Below, piece after piece: positions 3,800 to 36,904 of a stretch of DNA of 37,298 nt. The first letter of the stretch is position 1, and the number at the start of each line of letters is the position of its first letter. A program made the translations under genes and the position numbers. The notes beneath the pieces are model-generated. The model was not told the origin of the DNA. It ran no database searches and was given only the letters and a program-made list of their open reading frames with translations. Location of the stretch: IMG/VR virus record IMGVR_UViG_2872158770_000003. The stretch is one strand, 5' to 3'. This stretch comes from a virus (taxonomy: Duplodnaviria > Heunggongvirae > Uroviricota > Caudoviricetes).

Positions 3800-4010
3800 A
3801 AACGGTTTGCGGGAAAAGGAGAGTTAAGTAGAATTGCAGCGGGTGCTTGAGGCTATCTGTCTCAGGCATGAACACCAAAAGGCAGATAGAGAAAAGCCCC
3901 AGTTAACATTACGCGTCCGGCAAGACGCTTAACATTAATCTGAGGCTCAATCTATGAACGGCAAATCTAGGTTAGCCTCTTACGTGCCGAAAGGCAAGGA
4001 GAAGCAGGCT

Positions 4011-4166
4011 ATGAAGCAGCAAAAGGCGATGTTAATCGCCCTGATCGTCATCTGTTTAACCGTCATAGTGACGGCACTGGTAACGAGGAAAGACCTCTGC
4101 GAGGTACGAATTCGAACCGGCCAGACGGAGGTCGCTGTCTTCACAGCTTACGAACCTGAGGAGTAA
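4011..4166 (+). CDS. hokD: Hok/Gef-family type I toxin (51 aa), HokD/RelF-like
   Basis: Translation MKQQKAMLIALIVICLTVIVTALVTRKDLCEVRIRTGQTEVAVFTAYEPEE has the Hok signature (TM helix then C-x-[VI]-R and EVAAF-like motif); followed by a strong terminator. Confidence 0.75.
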   Translation: MKQQKAMLIALIVICLTVIVTALVTRKDLCEVRIRTGQTEVAVFTAYEPEE

Positions 4167-6433: not shown

Positions 6434-7251
6434 AACTGGAAGATTTACCGAAATACTACTCCCCAAAATCCCCCGGCCTGACTGATGCATCGGCCTCAAC
6501 GTCGAAAGATGCGCTGAGTATCACTGATGTGATGGCCGCGCAGGGCATGACACAGAATCGGGCTGAGATGGGGGTTTCTGCGTTCCTTGGGAAAATGGGC
6601 ATTAGTATGAATGACAGAGAGCGGGCAACAGAATTGCTGACAGAATATGCACTCAGTCGGTGTGATCGCGTGGCGGCGTTAAGAAAACTCCCGGCAGAAA
6701 TAAAACCGGCAGTGATGCGTATTATGGCTTCGTATGCGTTTGAAGATTATGCCCGTAGCGCGGCGAGCAAAAAACAGTGCCCCTGCTGTCACGGAAAAAA
6801 ATTTATTGAAAGCGAGGTTTTTACAAACAAGATCCAGTATCCGGATGGTAAGCCGCCGGTATGGGCAAAGTGTACGAAAGGTGTGTATCCGTCTTACTGG
6901 GAAGAATGGAAAAAAGTCAGGGAGGTGGTAAAAGTTGCCTGTCCGGAGTGTGGCGGAAAGGGTGAGGTTTCCACCGCCTGTAAGGATTGCCGTGGGCGTG
7001 GTGTCGCCATTCATCGTGAAGAGTCGGTAAAACGTGGTATGCCTGTTATCAGAGACTGCCAGCGTTGTGGTGGTCGTGGCTATGAAAGACTACCATCAAC
7101 GGAGGCATTTAATGCTATATGCGAGGTGACAAACCAGATAACACGCGCGTCATGGGAAAAAACAGTTAAGAAATTTTATGATGCGCTGGTGACCCGGTTT
7201 GATATTGAAGAAGCATGGGCTGAGCGGCAGTTAAAAAAGGTAACTAGGTAA
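6430..7251 (+). CDS. late-gene antitermination protein Q (273 aa)
   Basis: Overlaps rusA stop (ATGA); several CxxC zinc-finger pairs; sits directly upstream of a PR'-like promoter and short-transcript terminator. Confidence 0.7.
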   Translation: MKLEDLPKYYSPKSPGLTDASASTSKDALSITDVMAAQGMTQNRAEMGVSAFLGKMGISMNDRERATELLTEYALSRCDRVAALRKLPAEIKPAVMRIMASYAFEDYARSAASKKQCPCCHGKKFIESEVFTNKIQYPDGKPPVWAKCTKGVYPSYWEEWKKVREVVKVACPECGGKGEVSTACKDCRGRGVAIHREESVKRGMPVIRDCQRCGGRGYERLPSTEAFNAICEVTNQITRASWEKTVKKFYDALVTRFDIEEAWAERQLKKVTR

Positions 7252-7256
7252 CAAGG

Positions 7257-7284
7257 TTGATTTTTCCGGAATCTGTGGTAAATT
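7257..7284 (+). promoter_or_regulatory. candidate late promoter PR' (-35 TTGATT, 16-nt spacer, -10 TAAATT)
   Basis: Hexamers read directly after the Q stop; TAAATT is the lambda PR' -10 hexamer (recalled). Confidence 0.4.
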
Positions 7285-7333
7285 CGTCATAACGATGGGC
7301 GTTTTATGCCTGACGTTAGAAGAGTTTCTACAA

Positions 7334-7356
7334 CCCGCCGCCGAGCGGGTTTTTTA
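7334..7356 (+). terminator. tR'-like rho-independent terminator (end of short 6S-like late leader)
   Basis: Hairpin CCCGC-CGCCGA-GCGGG followed by TTTTTT, about 50 nt downstream of the candidate PR'. Confidence 0.5.
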
Positions 7357-7475
7357 TGACTGAAATCGCGTCAGTACAGTAAACGCGCTGGTGGCGGTGA
7401 ATACCTGTCTTTCAGCTTGCTGGCTTTTTCGACAAGAGTTATTGGTGTGTCACGTTAACCGGAAAAGGAAAAGAC

Positions 7476-7673
7476 ATGCTAAAACAGCAGGATATGACAG
7501 AAACCGCCAGAGTGGTGTTTAATGAATTAAGCGTTACCGAACCGGCGACAGTCGGGGAGATAGCGCAGAATACTTACCTTTCACGCGAACGCTGCCAGTT
7601 AATACTGACCCAGCTGGTTATGGCGGGTCTGGCAGACTATCAGTTCGGTTGTTACAGACGCCTTCCGCAGTGA
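7476..7673 (+). CDS. small winged-helix DNA-binding protein (65 aa), PapI/FaeA-like
   Basis: RBS AAGGAA upstream; helix-turn-helix-like segment TVGEIAQNTYLSRERCQLILTQLVMAGLA; sits directly upstream of a DNA methyltransferase. Confidence 0.4.
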   Translation: MLKQQDMTETARVVFNELSVTEPATVGEIAQNTYLSRERCQLILTQLVMAGLADYQFGCYRRLPQ

Positions 7674-7823
7674 AGGCTTTTTTATTTGTGGTAAATGGGC
7701 GGCTGGTGGGTGTTAGGGGCACCCACCAGCCATCTGCTCATGCGTTGGGTTCACAAGCAAACCTCAGGCCCACTGCTTTGCGCAAAAGCAGAATGAGCCT
7801 ATCAGAGACAGGCTTAATGATCC

Positions 7824-8882
7824 ATGCTTAATACTGTAAAAATATCCAGTTGTGAGTTAATCAACGCCGACTGCCTGGAATTTATCCGGTCGTTACCCGA
7901 AAATTCTGTTGACCTGATAGTCACGGACCCGCCGTACTTTAAAGTGAAGCCTGAGGGCTGGGATAACCAGTGGAAGGGCGACGATGATTACCTGAAGTGG
8001 CTGGACCAGTGTCTGGCGCAGTTCTGGCGGGTGCTGAAACCTGCCGGAAGTCTTTACCTGTTCTGTGGTCATCGCCTGGCATCTGATATCGAAATCATGA
8101 TGCGTGAACGCTTCAGTGTGCTGAACCATATTATCTGGGCGAAGCCGTCCGGACGCTGGAACGGATGCAACAAGGAAAGCCTGCGGGCGTATTTCCCCGC
8201 CACAGAGCGCATTCTGTTCGCGGAACATTATCAGGGGCCGTATCGTCCGAAAGATGCCGGGTATGCGGCGAAGGGCAGTGCACTGAAACAGCATGTGATG
8301 GCCCCGCTGATTTCTTACTTTCGTGATGCGCGAGCTGCCCTGGGGATAACGGCAAAACAGATTGCAGATGCCACAGGAAAGAAAAACATGGTGTCGCACT
8401 GGTTCAGTGCCGGTCAGTGGCAGTTGCCGAATGAAAGCGATTATCTGAAATTACAGGCGCTGTTTGCCCGGGTGGCAGAAGAGAAGCATCGGCGTGGTGA
8501 ACTGGAAAAGCTCCACCACCAGCTGGTGGATACGTATACCTCACTGAACCGGCAGTATGCGGAGCTGCTGAGTGAATATAAACATCTGCGGCGGTATTTT
8601 GGCGTGACGGTGCAGGTGCCGTATACCGATGTGTGGACGCATAAACCGGTGCAGTTCTATCCCGGGAAACATCCGTGCGAAAAACCGGCAGAAATGCTGC
8701 AGCAGATAATCAGCGCTAGCAGTCGTCCGGGTGACCTGATTGCAGATTTTTTCATGGGGTTGGGTTCGACAGTGAAAGCGGCACTGGCGCTCGGGCGTCG
8801 TGCAATTGGCGTTGAGCTGGAGACTGAACGTTTTGAGCAGACGGTTCGGGAAGTACAGGATTTAGTCAGCCAGAACGGATGA
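7824..8882 (+). CDS. DNA methyltransferase (N6-adenine/N4-cytosine, beta-class order) (352 aa)
   Basis: Catalytic DPPY motif near N-terminus (LIVTDPPYF) and SAM-binding FxGxGS motif near C-terminus (DFFMGLGST), i.e. motif IV before motif I. Confidence 0.8.
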   Translation: MLNTVKISSCELINADCLEFIRSLPENSVDLIVTDPPYFKVKPEGWDNQWKGDDDYLKWLDQCLAQFWRVLKPAGSLYLFCGHRLASDIEIMMRERFSVLNHIIWAKPSGRWNGCNKESLRAYFPATERILFAEHYQGPYRPKDAGYAAKGSALKQHVMAPLISYFRDARAALGITAKQIADATGKKNMVSHWFSAGQWQLPNESDYLKLQALFARVAEEKHRRGELEKLHHQLVDTYTSLNRQYAELLSEYKHLRRYFGVTVQVPYTDVWTHKPVQFYPGKHPCEKPAEMLQQIISASSRPGDLIADFFMGLGSTVKAALALGRRAIGVELETERFEQTVREVQDLVSQNG

Positions 8883-8922
8883 TATTGAAGAATTAATTAC
8901 GCGTCGTTATTATGCGGCTCCC

Positions 8923-8998
8923 GGCCCTTTAGCTCAGTGGTGAGAGCGAGCGACTCATAATCGCCAGGTCGCTGGTTCAAATCCAGCAAGGGCCACCA
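8923..8998 (+). tRNA. ileZ: tRNA-Ile2 (anticodon CAT, lysidine-type)
   Basis: Cloverleaf folded by hand: acceptor GGCCCTT/AAGGGCC, anticodon loop CTCATAA, T-loop TTCAAAT, encoded CCA; close to E. coli tRNA-Ile2 (recalled). Confidence 0.85.
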
Positions 8999-9005
8999 TC
9001 ACATA

Positions 9006-9082
9006 CCGCCATTAGCTCATCAGGAAAGAGCGCCAGCCTTCGAAGCTGGCTGCGCGGGGTTCAAGTCCCCGATGGCGGTCCA
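9006..9082 (+). tRNA. tRNA-Arg (anticodon TCG)
   Basis: Acceptor CCGCCAT/ATGGCGG, anticodon stem CCAGC/GCTGG with loop CTTCGAA, T-arm CGGGG-TTCAAGT-CCCCG, encoded CCA. Confidence 0.85.
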
Positions 9083-9095
9083 TTATCTGCATCAT

Positions 9096-9172
9096 GCGTT
9101 GTTAGCTCAGCCGGACAGAGCAATTGCCTTCTAAGCAATCGGTCACTGGTTCGAATCCAGTACAACGCGCCA
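9096..9172 (+). tRNA. tRNA-Arg (anticodon TCT, reads AGA/AGG)
   Basis: Acceptor GCGTTGT/ACAACGC, anticodon stem ATTGC/GCAAT with loop CTTCTAA, T-arm CACTGG-TTCGAAT-CCAGT, encoded CCA. Confidence 0.85.
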
Positions 9173-9186
9173 CACTTATTTTCCCT

Positions 9187-9212
9187 GGCTCGCTTTTGCG
9201 GGCCTTTTTTTT
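9187..9212 (+). terminator. rho-independent terminator after the tRNA cluster
   Basis: Stem GGCTCGC/GCGGGCC (one G-U pair), loop TTTT, followed by eight T. Confidence 0.6.
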
Positions 9213-9217
9213 AAATG

Positions 9218-9435
9218 TCTCACAATTCAGACGGTTGACAGTTGTCTGTTTTGCGGGGAGTTTGTTAAAAGAAACTGGCATGGTGAATCCCCCTGTGCGG
9301 AGGGGCAATCAGCGAGTAGGTATATGGGATAATCGCGGATTCAGGTGCTGGTACTGAATTCACCGGGAGGCACCCGGCATCATGCAATGGCACATAGCGC
9401 CACTCTCCAGCCCTCTCCGGAGGGGCTTTTCTGTG
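9218..9435 (+). repeat. module A of a diverged tandem duplication (TTGACA hexamer, conserved hairpins, terminal terminator)
   Basis: Shares collinear blocks with module B: CTCACAATTCAG, TTGACAGTTG, TTTGTTAAAA, GCATGGTGAATCCCCCTG, GCGGAGGGGC, CACCGGGAGGCACCCGGCA, CCCCTCTCCGGAGGGG + T-run. Confidence 0.6.
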
Positions 9436-9685
9436 CCGGATACATCACAGTTTCTGGAACCTTAGGTACTACAGTATCAGTCAGGGTGCTATATTTTCAG
9501 ATGTGATGAAAGCCTGTCAGCAGGCAGGGCGTATCGGAAATGACCCAGTAGAGAAAACGTTGACTCAGATACCGGTGCTGAGTTACCGGGAAACCGGCAT
9601 CACATGACCGCTATCCTTCCAGGCCCATCCGCTCCGGTGGGCCTTTTTACTGCAGAAAACAGGTTCCCCGTTAAATGCTATGTTG

Positions 9686-9919
9686 CTCACAATTCAGTAA
9701 GTTGACAGTTGCCTGTCAGACTGGGCATTTGTTAAAAAAATTTCGCATGGTGAATCCCCCTGAGCGGAGGGGCGACTGGTGACGGTATAATCTCTGATTA
9801 TCAAAACGAGAATGACGCGGGTTTAGTGGCACCGGGCTGAACTCACCGGGAGGCACCCGGCACCATGTGCATGATGATACAGATACGCGGCTTTAGCCCC
9901 TCTCCGGAGGGGTTTTCTT
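9686..9919 (+). repeat. module B of the diverged tandem duplication; contains a perfect TATAAT at 9786-9791
   Basis: Same ordered blocks as module A about 467 bp downstream; preceded by terminator hairpin GGCCCA-TCCGCTCCGG-TGGGCC + TTTTT (9622-9649). Confidence 0.6.
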
Positions 9920-10147
9920 GTGGGCAAAAAAAGCCCGCGCTGGGAGACGCGGGCGGCAAGGAATAAACAATAAAACGTGAAGTAATATTTCAGCTGGCGA
10001 ATAATACCCCATAGTAATCACTCTGCGCAACTGCGCGGTCTTTTTCGAATTGCGGGCTGTCGTCTCTCTTCTGCCATTGTCCTGTAACTTCCGGACTTCA
10101 GCCCGCTCCTTATTTTACTCACAATATTATCCCGGCCGGGAGGATTC

Positions 10148-12001
10148 ATGGCATTTAAACACTATGACGTGGTCAGGGCGGCATCGCCGTCAGACCTTGC
10201 GAAACGACTGACACAAAAACTGAAGGAGGGCTGGCAGCCGTTTGGTAGTCCGGTGGCCATAACCCCTTATACCCTGATGCAGGCGATTGCAGCAGAAGGT
10301 GATGTGGTCGTCAGTGGTGCAACTGAGCCGGAGTGGTACTACGTCATCGTACTGGCCGGGCAATCCAATGCCATGGCTTACGGTGAAGGTCTTCCGCTTC
10401 CGGATTCATACGATGCGCCCCATCCGCGCATTAAGCAACTGGCCCGTCGTAACACAGTGACTCCCGGTGGTGAAGTATGCGTATTTAACGACATCATTCC
10501 TGCTGACCATTGTCTGCATGATGTTCAGGATATGAGTACGATTAACCATCCCCGGGCTGACCTGAGCAAAGGGCAGTACGGCTGTGTCGGACAGGGCTTA
10601 CATATTGCCAAAAAACTGCTTCCGTATATCCCTAATAATGCGGGGATCCTGCTGGTACCATGCTGTTGTGGTGGTTCGGCATTCACCCAGGGCACGGAGG
10701 GGACATTCAGCGAGTCCACGGGGGCCAGTCAGGATTCGGCTCGCTGGGGAGTGGGTAAGCCGTTATATCAGGATCTGCTTTTCCGCACGAAGGCAGCATT
10801 GCAGAAAAACCCGAAAAACGTTTTGCTGGCGATATGCTGGATGCAGGGGGAATTCGATATGACGAATGCCAGTTACGCCCAGCAGCCAGCAGCATTTCTT
10901 GCAATGGTACAGCAGTTCCGTGCTGACCTTGCCGGGCTGGCGGCGCAGTGTCACGGTGGAAGTCCGGCATCAGTCCCCTGGATTTGTGGCGACACGACAT
11001 ACGCGTGGAAACAAGAACACGGTACGCAATATGAAGTGGTATATGGTGCATATAAAGGTAAAGAATCCCAGCAGATTTATTTTGTTCCCTTTATGACCGA
11101 TGGTAGCGGAGTTAATACACCGACAAACAACCCGTCAGAAGATCCTGATATTGCCGGGTCTGGTTATTACGGTTCGGCATCCCGAACGAACAAAAACTGG
11201 GTATCATCAAATCGCCCGACGCATTTCAGCTCATGGGCGCGTCGTGGCATTATTCCCGATCGTATGGCAACTGCTATTCTGAACGTAGCCGGTCGCACCT
11301 TAGCCTTCATTAGTGGTAAGGCACCGGAAATCAAACCCTCGCCCGGCGGCGACACGCCATCGGGGCCGTCTGAAGATGCATCCATACGCACAATCTCCCT
11401 GTTGCCGACAGCCGGAGACGCTGCTGCGCAGGGCTGGAGCATTAAGAATGGCGGAGTTCAGTTGTCAGATGGTGTATTTAAGATCACCAAGCAGAGCAAT
11501 AAAGCCTGGTCCCTGACGCGCCCGGTGGATGACGCAGTCTCCCTGCTGACACGGGGTGGCAGACTGAGCTGTAAGTTTCGACTGTCAGGCGCACTGACCA
11601 ACAACCAGTTCGGTCTGGGAATTTATCTGTATACCGATGTAGCGTTACCTGACGTCGTGGCGATGACCGGGACTGGTAACCCGTTCCTGATGTCGTTCTT
11701 CACCCAGACCACAGACGGCAAACTGAATCTGATGCATCACAAGAAAGCAGGAAACACAAAGTTGGGCGAGTTCGGGAATTACAGTAACGACTGGCTGACG
11801 CTGGAGCTGGTGTTCACCGCCGGCAGTGCCACGGTTACTCCGAAACTGAATGGAGTGGCTGGCCCGGCATTCCAGGTCATAAAAGACAGTCTGACACTGG
11901 GGCTGAATGCGCTGACGCTGACGGATATTACCAAAAATGCAGCGTATGGCGTTGAGATAGAAAGTCTGGTGCTGGAGATAAATGCACCGGCATCATCATA
12001 A
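10148..12001 (+). CDS. nanS-p: prophage NanS-p-type sialate O-acetylesterase (617 aa)
   Basis: RBS GGGAGGA upstream; SGNH-hydrolase-like block VIVLAGQSNAMAYGEG; size and position (after phage tRNAs, before the holin) match Stx-phage nanS-p (recalled). Confidence 0.7.
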   Translation: MAFKHYDVVRAASPSDLAKRLTQKLKEGWQPFGSPVAITPYTLMQAIAAEGDVVVSGATEPEWYYVIVLAGQSNAMAYGEGLPLPDSYDAPHPRIKQLARRNTVTPGGEVCVFNDIIPADHCLHDVQDMSTINHPRADLSKGQYGCVGQGLHIAKKLLPYIPNNAGILLVPCCCGGSAFTQGTEGTFSESTGASQDSARWGVGKPLYQDLLFRTKAALQKNPKNVLLAICWMQGEFDMTNASYAQQPAAFLAMVQQFRADLAGLAAQCHGGSPASVPWICGDTTYAWKQEHGTQYEVVYGAYKGKESQQIYFVPFMTDGSGVNTPTNNPSEDPDIAGSGYYGSASRTNKNWVSSNRPTHFSSWARRGIIPDRMATAILNVAGRTLAFISGKAPEIKPSPGGDTPSGPSEDASIRTISLLPTAGDAAAQGWSIKNGGVQLSDGVFKITKQSNKAWSLTRPVDDAVSLLTRGGRLSCKFRLSGALTNNQFGLGIYLYTDVALPDVVAMTGTGNPFLMSFFTQTTDGKLNLMHHKKAGNTKLGEFGNYSNDWLTLELVFTAGSATVTPKLNGVAGPAFQVIKDSLTLGLNALTLTDITKNAAYGVEIESLVLEINAPASS

Positions 12002-12085
12002 AAAGTGAGCCAGCCAAATGGAAGGTATCGTTAAACTCACCGGTAGTGTCAGTGGGTCGTCTGAGATGCCTGCATGAGTTATCAG

Positions 12086-12117
12086 AGCCATCAGTACTTA
12101 ACTGGTGGCTTTTTTTA
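12086..12117 (+). terminator. rho-independent terminator downstream of nanS-p
   Basis: 9-bp stem AGCCATCAG/CTGGTGGCT (one G-U), loop TACTTAA, then TTTTTTT. Confidence 0.6.
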
Positions 12118-12151
12118 TTGTTGTCAGCTTCCGGATAACGGGAGACGGGGT

Positions 12152-12367
12152 ATGTACCAGATGGAAAAAATCACAACAGGTGTGTCATACACCACGTCAG
12201 CGGTGGGAACGGGCTACTGGTTCCTGCAGTTGCTGGACAGGGTTTCCCCGTCTCAGTGGGCGGCAATAGGCGTGCTGGGGAGTCTGCTGTTTGGGCTGCT
12301 GACATATCTGACTAACCTGTATTTCAAAATCAGAGAGGACCGTCGTAAGGCTGCACGGGGAGAGTAA
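12152..12367 (+). CDS. S: class II holin (phage-21 S-type pinholin), dual-start motif MYQMEK
   Basis: Translation ...[51 protein letters not shown] matches phage 21 pinholin (recalled); two in-frame ATGs at 12152 and 12161. Confidence 0.75.
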
Positions 12368-12371
12368 TTCA

Positions 12372-12686
12372 ATGACTCAAAACTATGAACTGATTGTGAA
12401 AGGGATCCGCAATTTTGAGAATAAAGTTACGGTAACTTTAGCGTTACGGGACAAAAAACGCTTTGACGGTGAAATTTTTGACCTGGACATCTCGCTGGAC
12501 CGTGTTGAAGGTGCCGCGCTGGAGTTTTATGAGGCAGCAGCCAGAAGGAGCATCAGACAGGTCTTCTTGGATGTTGCTGCCGGGTTATGTGAAGGGGACG
12601 AGCTGTTGCCAGAAACGCGCCCCTGTTCAGAGGCGCGGTATACCATAAAAATTAACAGTTCTGATAACTCGATTACGGGTTGTTAG
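12372..12686 (+). CDS. hypothetical protein (104 aa) between holin and endolysin
   Basis: ORF with GGGGAGAG RBS region 5 nt after holin stop; no family recognised. Confidence 0.4.
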   Translation: MTQNYELIVKGIRNFENKVTVTLALRDKKRFDGEIFDLDISLDRVEGAALEFYEAAARRSIRQVFLDVAAGLCEGDELLPETRPCSEARYTIKINSSDNSITGC

Positions 12687-36344: not shown

Positions 36345-36904
36345 TTAATTGGATGATCACCACCTCTGACGCCAATCAGGGAGGTGGTGAGACGTACAGG
36401 GTTGGCGTAACCGGTCATCACAAAACCCGGCGCGGATTTCTCCGCCCCTGCACGCCCCACCATAATGCGAATGTGGCAATGCTTAACGCAAAAAAAACCG
36501 CAAACGCGGCTATGCGTTGTGATGTTATCCGAGACGCCAATCCCGACAACCGATTTTGCGGTTGTGTGAGGAATATAGCCCCGGAGAACAAAAACTGTCA
36601 ACGGGCAAAAAAATTTCCGTTATCAGGAATGTATAAAATTAAAGCGATCGAGCAAAAAATCCTTTCTGCAAAACTAAAAAAGATTTCAATAAAATCAGGC
36701 AGTTAAAAACACGGAAAAACGGTATAAAAAAGCGCCTCAAAATCCTGTTTTTTCTTTCAGATACAATGTCTTATTGCATTTTTTAAAACATGTCAGTGTG
36801 GTACATGGATATCGATACCATCGCCAATTATAAACTGGGCGGTGCACAGCAACATGATAGCGTACGCCTCGATCCGTGGGTGTTTATGTTCTCAGCAGGA
36901 TATC

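Follow-up and report, generated by a model that had tools for sequence, protein, structure and literature searches.

The cargo slot of a lambdoid prophage, at positions 9187-10147 of a 37,298-nucleotide (nt) stretch of Caudoviricetes DNA (IMG/VR record IMGVR_UViG_2872158770_000003; this whole stretch is called the window in the following), contains two hairpin-rich modules that a preliminary description had noted as diverged tandem copies. Judged by their sequence, these modules are copies of the catalogued prophage small RNA (sRNA) STnc100, also known as EcOnc05, EcOnc27 or sRNA103, and relatives of the sRNA PasD. The apparent oddity of the locus is thereby resolved: the kind of element is already known, its orthologues have been detected experimentally before, and it lies in its usual genomic place. 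The details that are new concern an unannotated third paralogue, a pseudoknot that is supported by covariation, and the breadth of the family. We consider it likely that the slot, which lies in the late-operon leader of the prophage, holds three independently transcribed, terminator-bounded STnc100/PasD sRNA morons that act in trans and a short convergent sRNA gene. The present analysis establishes the family identity of the units, their anatomy, a fold with covariation support, their genomic position and their recurrence.

We scanned the window with Rfam at the gathering thresholds. The family STnc100 (RF02076, "Gammaproteobacterial sRNA"; cut-off 47 bits) matched 9249-9438 at 123.6 bits (E 7e-27; unit A) and 9716-9925 at 161 bits (E 2e-36; unit B), and both matches spanned model positions 1-206, so that both modules pass as full-length members. 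A covariance model of our own scored unit A at 97.1 bits and unit B at 94.4 bits. Over their whole length the modules (~9219-9433 and 9686-9922) are 70.7% identical (215 aligned positions), and in a three-way alignment they are collinear end to end; the series of ordered sequence blocks that had been reported for both was recovered in full and in place, far beyond what chance would give. The Northern probe that was published for EcOnc05 is the exact reverse complement of 9307-9341 in unit A (35/35), and the EcOnc06 probe fits 9320-9354 of the same unit with one mismatch (34/35). The idea that the modules are small promoter-to-terminator units for structured small RNAs is thus supported by their STnc100 membership and by the detection of orthologues on Northern blots and by Hfq cross-linking and analysis of cDNA (CRAC).

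The stretch between the two modules (9445-9650), which had passed for a spacer, is a third, diverged copy, and the slot therefore contains three units instead of two. In a 3-kb search at a permissive threshold, RF02076 aligned with 9477-9650 over its full length (30.1 bits, E 5e-4), which leaves the middle unit (9501-9650) below the gathering score of 47 bits; as far as sequence and predicted structure go, it is a structural homologue of STnc100, though one outside the family by Rfam's own criterion. The score explains why the unit will be overlooked by Rfam-based annotation pipelines. A profile of the units, in which the middle unit was itself included, recovered it with nhmmer at 149 bits, and our covariance model, also built with it, at 38 bits. 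Its identity to A and B is only 46-48%, and the changes preserve the helices: in the closing helix P1 GCAUGGUG/CACCAUGC has become AUGUGAUG/CAUCACAU, in hairpin Y GAUUCAG/CUGAAUU has become GACUCAG/CUGAGUU, and the 3' hairpin CCGGG-AGGCA-CCCGG has become CCGG-GAAA-CCGG. The minimum-free-energy fold of the unit has the family architecture (z = -2.6), and on the + strand its RNA comprises P1 (ATGTGATG/CATCACAT), hairpin 1 (CCUGUC-AGCA-GGCAGG), hairpin Y, the CCGG-GAAA-CCGG hairpin and a terminator at 9621-9644. An extended -10 element, TGcTATATT (9487-9495, + strand), lies 6-7 nt upstream of P1 and would serve as its promoter. The same element occurs identically in the IMG/VR contig L170, which carries a diverged version of the whole trio with the middle unit retained and with a C-G to U-A exchange in hairpin 1. 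The middle unit was found in 673 of the 5426 complete Escherichia coli genomes, in two sequence classes (≥ 99% and ~85% identity), and was never annotated; this paralogue, which escapes annotation and is yet retained, may define a second, unannotated STnc100 subfamily that is present in ~12% of the complete E. coli genomes.

The preliminary description had considered the modules as possible duplicated regulatory relics and had held that no peptide frame is common to the copies. The notion of relics is not supported: the fold has been kept through compensatory changes even in the most diverged copy. As to the peptide, A and B do share a frame in the conserved 5' part (MVNPP...), as is expected at such DNA identity; of the 79 distinct family cores, 20 interrupt the frame with a stop in the first 12 codons and 41 do so in the first 25, and these stops rule out a conserved peptide family-wide, so that the statement holds for the family, if not for the pair. 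We regard it as hardly credible that the units encode short proteins or are duplicates in decay. Such a reading could draw on this shared frame, on a ratio of ribosome footprints to RNA above 1.5 for 4 of the 11 copies in strain EDL933, and on the single annotation that PGAP places in the 961 bp of the slot in strain UTI89, a pseudo "hypothetical protein" on the opposite strand; it is at odds with the early stops, with a variation that is compensatory for RNA helices, and with the retention of the diverged copy in so many genomes.

To describe the fold, family members were collected with an exact 19-mer from the 3' hairpin (at least 120 IMG/VR loci), and a covariance model that was built from 68 cores was run on 100 sources, yielding 139 units of which 100 were distinct. 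Among these 100 cores, 92.8% of the cells in the nested helices were paired (78.1% in shuffled sequences, 44-46% when the partners were slid), and changes on both sides of a pair were seen in 419 cells versus 125 in shuffles, in an alignment that was fitted to the model. Such changes occur in 19 of the 26 pairs, including all eight of hairpin Y and seven of the eight of P1. The STnc100/PasD fold, consisting of P1, hairpin 1, hairpin Y and the 3' hairpin, is thus supported by covariation. All three units of the window fold alone into this architecture; the minimum-free-energy folds of A and B give the family helices.

In nearly every member the loop of hairpin Y can pair with the 6-10 nt that follow hairpin 1, which predicts a pseudoknot for which 59 different helix types were counted. 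In unit A, for instance, the two strands are AUCAGC and GCUGGU; unit B has CUGGUG and CACCGG, Klebsiella-type members have CCAGUC and GACUGG, and PasD has AAUGAUC and GAUCAUU. The MAFFT register shifts by one column between subfamilies, and the pseudoknot was counted by a helix search per sequence with shuffled and cross-sequence controls: a helix of at least 6 bp was present in 84% of the cores, in 10% of those with shuffled loops, and in 18% of the cross-sequence combinations (members with a different helix). A scan at fixed offsets showed the diagonal ridge of an antiparallel helix, with 58-64% paired, where most other offset pairs gave 24-47%. The RF02076 consensus, as displayed by Rfam, contains no pseudoknot. 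In the accessible parts of the literature no link between STnc100 and a pseudoknot was shown (a study of outer-membrane vesicles uses both terms, probably for PK-repZ), and an earlier publication is possible. Near-invariant unpaired stretches include GGUGAAUC and, in the loop of hairpin 1, GCG. A second tertiary pairing is possible between the hairpin 1 loop UGCG (9290-9299) and CGCG/CGCGG before hairpin Y (9330-9334); the two sites co-change in the middle unit (9511-9525 and 9556-9562; UCAG, UUGA) and vary little elsewhere.

The units share one layout on the + strand. Unit A has an upstream block at 9219-9277 that contains CTCACAATTCAG, a TTGACA (9235-9240), a -35-like TTGTCT (9242-9247), an 18-nt spacer and TGtTAAAAG (9263-9271), and its RNA (EcOnc05 type; 9278-9433, with a predicted 5' end) consists of P1 (9278-9285/9378-9385), hairpin 1, the pseudoknot strand ATCAGC, hairpin Y (9336-9361), CCGGG-AGGCA-CCCGG, a variable linker, and the terminator at 9409-9427 with its U-run. 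The upstream block of unit B (9686-9744) repeats CTCACAATTCAG, TTGACA (9702-9707), TTGCCT (9709-9714) and TGtTAAAAA (9730-9738), and is near-identical to the stretch 3' of stxB in Stx2a phages and 933W. The RNA of this unit (9745-9922; the STnc100 type that is found 3' of stx2 in Stx2a phages) has P1 at 9745-9752/9861-9868, the pseudoknot given above, and a terminator at 9895-9914. The block is kept at the 5' edge of the E. coli-type units, with differing flanks. All three units end in an intrinsic terminator with a T-run (9409-9427, 9621-9644 and 9895-9914). Each of the two modules had been described as preceded by a terminator of its own; both terminators are real (9187-9204 and 9621-9644, each with a T-run), and the second, given the third copy, is that copy's own. 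The first belongs to the intrinsic terminator that follows the tRNA genes (9187-9213, + strand, argO type, from the terminator scan) and forms the left edge of the cargo slot.

Most of the diverged family members have textbook promoters upstream of P1, such as TTGACA-17-TAAATT, which end 6-8 nt before P1, and the RNA-seq-estimated start of PasD2 lies at GCATGG, on the first base of P1. By analogy with these, the promoter of A and B would be formed by TTGTCT or TTGCCT, 18 nt and the TG-extended -10-like element. The two TTGACA hexamers lie 25 nt from the sole -10-like element, so that they are probably not in use as -35 elements, and the putative -35 TTGTCT/TTGCCT at 18 nt fits better. The perfect TATAAT of module B (9786-9791) is present as reported, in a variable insertion of that unit; lacking a -35 partner or a TG, and not being conserved in other B-type units, it probably arose by chance and not as an internal promoter. 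The TCACA of the upstream block (9219-9230 and 9686-9697) stands ~61 nt before the predicted unit starts. The corresponding block in 933W (L003 4732-4753) reads AAGTGTAATCTGTGTCACAATT and is a good match to a CRP site, which would suggest CRP control; the two units of the window, however, match the left half of such a site poorly.

Published work on orthologues provides the expression data for the family. In eight prophages of strain Sakai, Tree et al. (PMC4104026) reported what they called "convergent sRNAs" at the moron site that follows the late promoter PR', and their table lists, all with Hfq-CRAC peaks, EcOnc05 (Sp4, + strand, ~222 nt), EcOnc06 (Sp17, ~177 nt), EcOnc27 (Sp5, + strand, ~235/247 nt) and EcOnc08 (Sp4, - strand). 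In enterohaemorrhagic E. coli (EHEC), EcOnc05, EcOnc06 and EcOnc27 are discrete Hfq-bound RNAs by Northern blot and CRAC; the STnc100 copy downstream of stx2 (EcOnc27, which is sRNA103 of EDL933) is an Hfq-binding sRNA. For EDL933 eleven STnc100 copies are listed with RNA-seq reads for each (eight above 200 reads per kilobase per million, the lowest at 97), one of them confirmed by Northern blot, and one STnc100 copy was detected in outer-membrane vesicles of Shiga toxin-producing E. coli. PasD1 and PasD2 of enteropathogenic E. coli (EPEC) are ~172 nt long, were found by sequencing of RNA interactions on Hfq (RIL-seq) and confirmed on Northern blots, and are reported to depend on Hfq for their stability; their predicted seed is part of the linker beside the terminator, and partners have been recovered by RIL-seq. 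By analogy with this literature, the units of the window would accumulate in lysogens as discrete Hfq-bound RNAs.

PasD1/2 share ancestry with STnc100 according to a preprint by Zhu, Shabalina and Storz (2026). In EPEC strain E2348/69 (Pearl Mizrahi 2021; Zhu, Shabalina and Storz 2026) they occupy the same slot (Q, morons, sRNA, esterase or holin) and have P1, hairpin 1, the pseudoknot and hairpin Y in common with the window units. Among the differences, the CCGGG-AGGCA-CCCGG hairpin is missing from PasD, the promoter and terminator of PasD are not those of the window units, and PasD scores only 35.8 bits in our model, though PasD2 was among the sequences from which it was built. A further difference is that the PasA and PasD copies are distal and non-tandem according to the preprint, whereas those of the window are tandem.

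Put together, a unit consists of a putative promoter (a weak -35 and a TG-extended -10 that ends 6-7 nt before P1), followed by a compact core of ~105-125 nt (P1, hairpin 1, the pseudoknot from the junction to the hairpin Y loop, and CCGGG-AGGCA-CCCGG as an invariant hairpin), 17-30 nt of variable, single-stranded linker, and an intrinsic terminator that ends in a U-tail. From a sigma-70 promoter of its own, each unit would be transcribed in the lysogen into an RNA of ~150-180 nt (predicted lengths from the start of P1 are ~155 nt for A, ~150 nt for the middle unit and ~177 nt for B). The conserved core would then act as a stable scaffold, and the variable linker beside the terminator as the region that pairs with targets, because the predicted seed of PasD lies there. 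As the linkers differ among A, the middle unit and B, the three paralogues might be non-redundant and have different target sets.

Several observations weigh against this scheme. The published Northern sizes of EcOnc05 (~222 nt) and EcOnc27 (~235/247 nt) exceed an RNA that starts at P1 by 50-70 nt, which means that the promoter assignment for the E. coli-type units may be wrong; the longer sizes might be explained if transcription began close to the CTCACAATTCAG block, or if the RNAs were processed from longer precursors. The -10 hexamers of A (TAAAAG) and B (TAAAAA) lack the final T, the 5' ends of the units are predicted from sequence, and the evidence for expression comes from orthologues. 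The Hfq dependence of PasD is mixed, as its transcript level was not lowered in an hfq mutant according to an RNA-seq table. Overexpression of EcOnc27/sRNA103 raised the fimZ and espA transcripts by a mechanism that is unclear, and the papers on STnc100 establish no target, seed, phenotype or function. With respect to structure, the z-scores of the folds of A (-0.5) and B (-1.3) are unremarkable, the invariance of CCGGG-AGGCA-CCCGG in the family set was imposed by the 19-mer with which the set was retrieved, and a plain base-pairing sRNA would not usually have so conserved and pseudoknotted a core.

In a different proposal, the conserved pseudoknotted core is a decoy, a sponge or an aptamer-like element that binds a small ligand or a protein, arrays raise the dose, and Hfq and the linker are secondary. 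The multi-helix junction, the covarying pseudoknot and the near-invariant unpaired GGUGAAUC and GCG favour a core that binds a partner, and so does the distribution of the family, the breadth of which was taken from IMG/VR and GenBank phages: the core is kept in temperate phages of E. coli, Shigella, Salmonella, Klebsiella, Citrobacter and Cronobacter, among which are cultured or induced phages such as Fels-1, Gifsy-1 and ST64B of Salmonella and SfV and SfIV of Shigella, while linkers, terminators and promoters are freely replaced. A 16-mer scan of genome contigs gave, among the matches listed, only chance matches in unrelated phyla. The arrays of 3-5 diverged units that we found in IMG/VR contigs (L195 4316-5536, L158 1662-2418, L145 372-998 and L136 2241-3415), in which each unit has a promoter-like element and a terminator of its own and the period is often ~253 bp, would likewise fit a dose effect. 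Against the proposal stand the lack of a known partner, the case of PasD, which has a predicted linker seed and RIL-seq partners without the third hairpin, and the fact that paralogues within one array differ mainly in the linker, as would be expected if the linker matters. Riboswitch and ribozyme families were absent from 7200-10200 at E-values up to 10; besides STnc100 and tRNA the search gave only sub-threshold Rfam matches. We hold it unlikely that partner binding by the core is what the units are mainly for. The more general proposition, that STnc100/PasD is a compact pseudoknotted RNA with an GGUGAAUC-type junction, whose core, conserved in temperate phages of at least six enterobacterial genera, has a ligand or a protein of host or phage as its partner and whose diverged arrays tune dose and specificity, is perhaps a little easier to entertain, and still unlikely.

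The positions of the units in other phages bear on whether they act in trans, as the moron scheme has it. The four units of L195 take up the whole space from a Q-like gene to the holin gene, and in Fels-1 a unit lies between Q and the holin gene as well. The unit of SfV (L249 3001-3201) is located in the cI/early-left region, between the terminator after orf33 and orf32, and thus outside the late region. A promoter and terminator of their own, together with such varied genome positions, argue for autonomous morons that act in trans, unlike a cis element of the lysis operon. Klebsiella-type members (L243 2841-3097 and L205 5379-5635) have no canonical terminator after the core and a holin gene ~200 nt downstream, a layout that poses the question what keeps the promoter there from driving lysis.

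The preliminary description had also noted a terminator on the minus strand, which is indeed present (stem 9954-9933) and is part of a convergent short sRNA gene (9926 to ~9996, - strand). This gene has a -10-like TATTAT (10004-9999), a 5' part of ~40 nt that is predicted to be single-stranded, and the terminator with its U-run (fold z = -2.8). The stretch is near-identical to the Sakai Sp4 region under the EcOnc08 Hfq-CRAC peak, and it closely resembles an sRNA candidate from RIL-seq in EPEC with the predicted seed CUUGCG. AsxR (RF02703) and AgvB (RF02702) gave no match in 9880-10160 at E-values up to 10, in a search that found AsxR in 933W at 88 bits; the minus-strand RNA accordingly belongs to neither of them, and is of the EcOnc08 type. 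With its terminator facing that of unit B (9895-9914 on the + strand), it forms a dyad that is collinear with EcOnc05/EcOnc08 of Sakai Sp4. The dyads of Tree et al. 2014 (AsxR/EcOnc27, AgvB/EcOnc06 and EcOnc08/EcOnc05) are composed in the same way, of an STnc100 unit on the + strand and a short sRNA on the - strand with back-to-back terminators, and like the pair in the window they lie between a moron and the conserved esterase open reading frame (ORF); the difference from the AsxR and AgvB dyads lies in the type of the minus-strand RNA.

The genes around the slot are ordered as follows: a Q homologue, PR'/tR', a small ORF, an N6/N4 DNA methylase gene, three tRNA genes, unit A, the third copy, unit B, the convergent sRNA gene, a nanS-p esterase gene and a P21-type holin gene. 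The antiterminator is a homologue of lambda Q (273 amino acids, PF03589; 32% identity, E 4e-41) and carries an inserted zinc-ribbon segment. Behind it, at 7257-7358 on the + strand, are the late promoter PR', with a lambda-like qut/pause element, and tR' (7332-7351). Aligned by eye, the window reads TTGATT-16 nt-TAAATT-cgtcat-AACGATGGG, where lambda has TTGACT-17 nt-TAAATT-tgactc-AACGATGGG, so that the AACGATGGG motif stands equally far from the promoter in both. The tRNA genes (tRNA-Ile, tRNA-Arg and tRNA-Arg, ileZ-argN-argO type; 8923-9169, + strand) were recognised with the Rfam tRNA model and are so annotated in UTI89, 933W and Sakai Sp4. The esterase gene (10148-12001, + strand) encodes a sialate O-acetylesterase of the nanS-p type with the Pfam domains DUF1737, SASA and DUF6645, its position matches L0105 of 933W and ECs_1088 of Sp4, and the holin gene starts at 12074.

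We also considered that the modules might be the PR'-tR' unit, of the kind of lambda 6S or StxS, which likewise gives a short RNA relevant to Hfq, ended by a terminator in the late-operon leader that is read through after Q modification. This was rejected, as PR', qut and tR' sit directly after Q and the modules start 2 kb further on, past the methylase gene and the three tRNA genes.

Between PR' and nanS-p there are seven terminator-like sites on the + strand, and in 7100-12400 there are 19 in total (5.2 ± 2.6 in shuffled sequences); all seven must be read through for late expression. This abundance of terminators would fit units that are mainly cis-acting transcription insulators, which, together with the convergent terminator, would keep lysogenic read-through from moron and tRNA promoters out of the esterase and lysis genes, with the RNAs as by-products, and in lambdoid phages the units are always upstream of the lysis genes. 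A terminator requires neither a covarying, pseudoknotted domain of 110 nt nor a promoter of its own, however, the SfV unit is found outside the late region, and in EHEC and EPEC the RNAs reach high levels and are bound by Hfq, so that we judge this explanation improbable as the main role. Within the proposed scheme of trans-acting sRNA morons, the back-to-back terminators would also shield the esterase and lysis genes from lysogenic transcription, and after induction Q-modified polymerase from PR' (7257-7290) would read through all units.

A structured domain that is closed by P1 and followed by a terminator 17-30 nt later also resembles a leader, and each unit could in principle be a riboswitch- or attenuator-type control of read-through into nanS-p or holin. 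Hairpin 1 and the terminator of E. coli-type units have one and the same 3' strand, GGAGGGG, which makes a strand swap conceivable, and some Klebsiella-type members, lacking a canonical terminator, have the holin gene ~200 nt downstream. This terminator/anti-terminator swap was rejected, as it is not conserved across the family: the terminator sequences are unrelated family-wide, and hence there is no conserved anti-terminator pairing. As, moreover, the next element after the units is a further unit instead of a gene, and the late operon is already under control of Q from PR', a leader function appears very improbable.

The complete 961 bp of the slot occur at 99.4% identity in 353 of the 5426 E. 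coli genomes, including UTI89, S88, IHE3034, NU14 and the type strain ATCC 11775. The nanS-p esterase is intact in the window (617 amino acids) and a truncated pseudogene in the otherwise 99.4% identical UTI89 locus. In Sakai Sp4 the order is argO, terminator, one near-identical A-type unit, convergent sRNA and esterase. The catalogued STnc100 copies of Sakai Sp4 and of 933W and Sp5 have the same positions (tRNA-sRNA-convergent sRNA-nanS-p, and downstream of stx2B, respectively), and the window differs from them by its three tandem units, the middle one of which is sub-threshold. In 933W and the Stx2a phages the homology with the window spans the terminator after the tRNA genes and ends at ~9211; 933W and other Stx2 phages continue with stxAB, one STnc100 unit 75 nt after stxB, the convergent sRNA and the esterase, and from unit B to the start of nanS-p the window is 90% identical to a Stx2a phage. 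This break and the Stx2 layout imply that unit A and the middle unit occupy here the place of stxAB, and that in this prophage, of the type found in extraintestinal pathogenic E. coli, non-coding morons are exchanged in that slot like toxin genes. The family, with its covariation-supported pseudoknot, spreads far beyond the E. coli/Shigella focus of recent work, which bears on the function of this well-folded STnc100/PasD RNA. That function is of medical interest, as in a machine-learning study of 2025 haemolytic uraemic syndrome was predicted most strongly by, among others, sequence variants of the STnc100 region that follows stx2.

Two further RNA loci were noticed elsewhere in the window. 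At 3841-4016 (+ strand) lies a toxin-antitoxin locus of the hok/sok type (Rfam sok, 112 bits), for which hokD is annotated at the UTI89 counterpart. At the right end of the window (36380-36565, - strand) a C4 antisense RNA (75.9 bits) adjoins isrK (72.2 bits), a pair that looks like a P1/P7-like c4/antirepressor immunity module.

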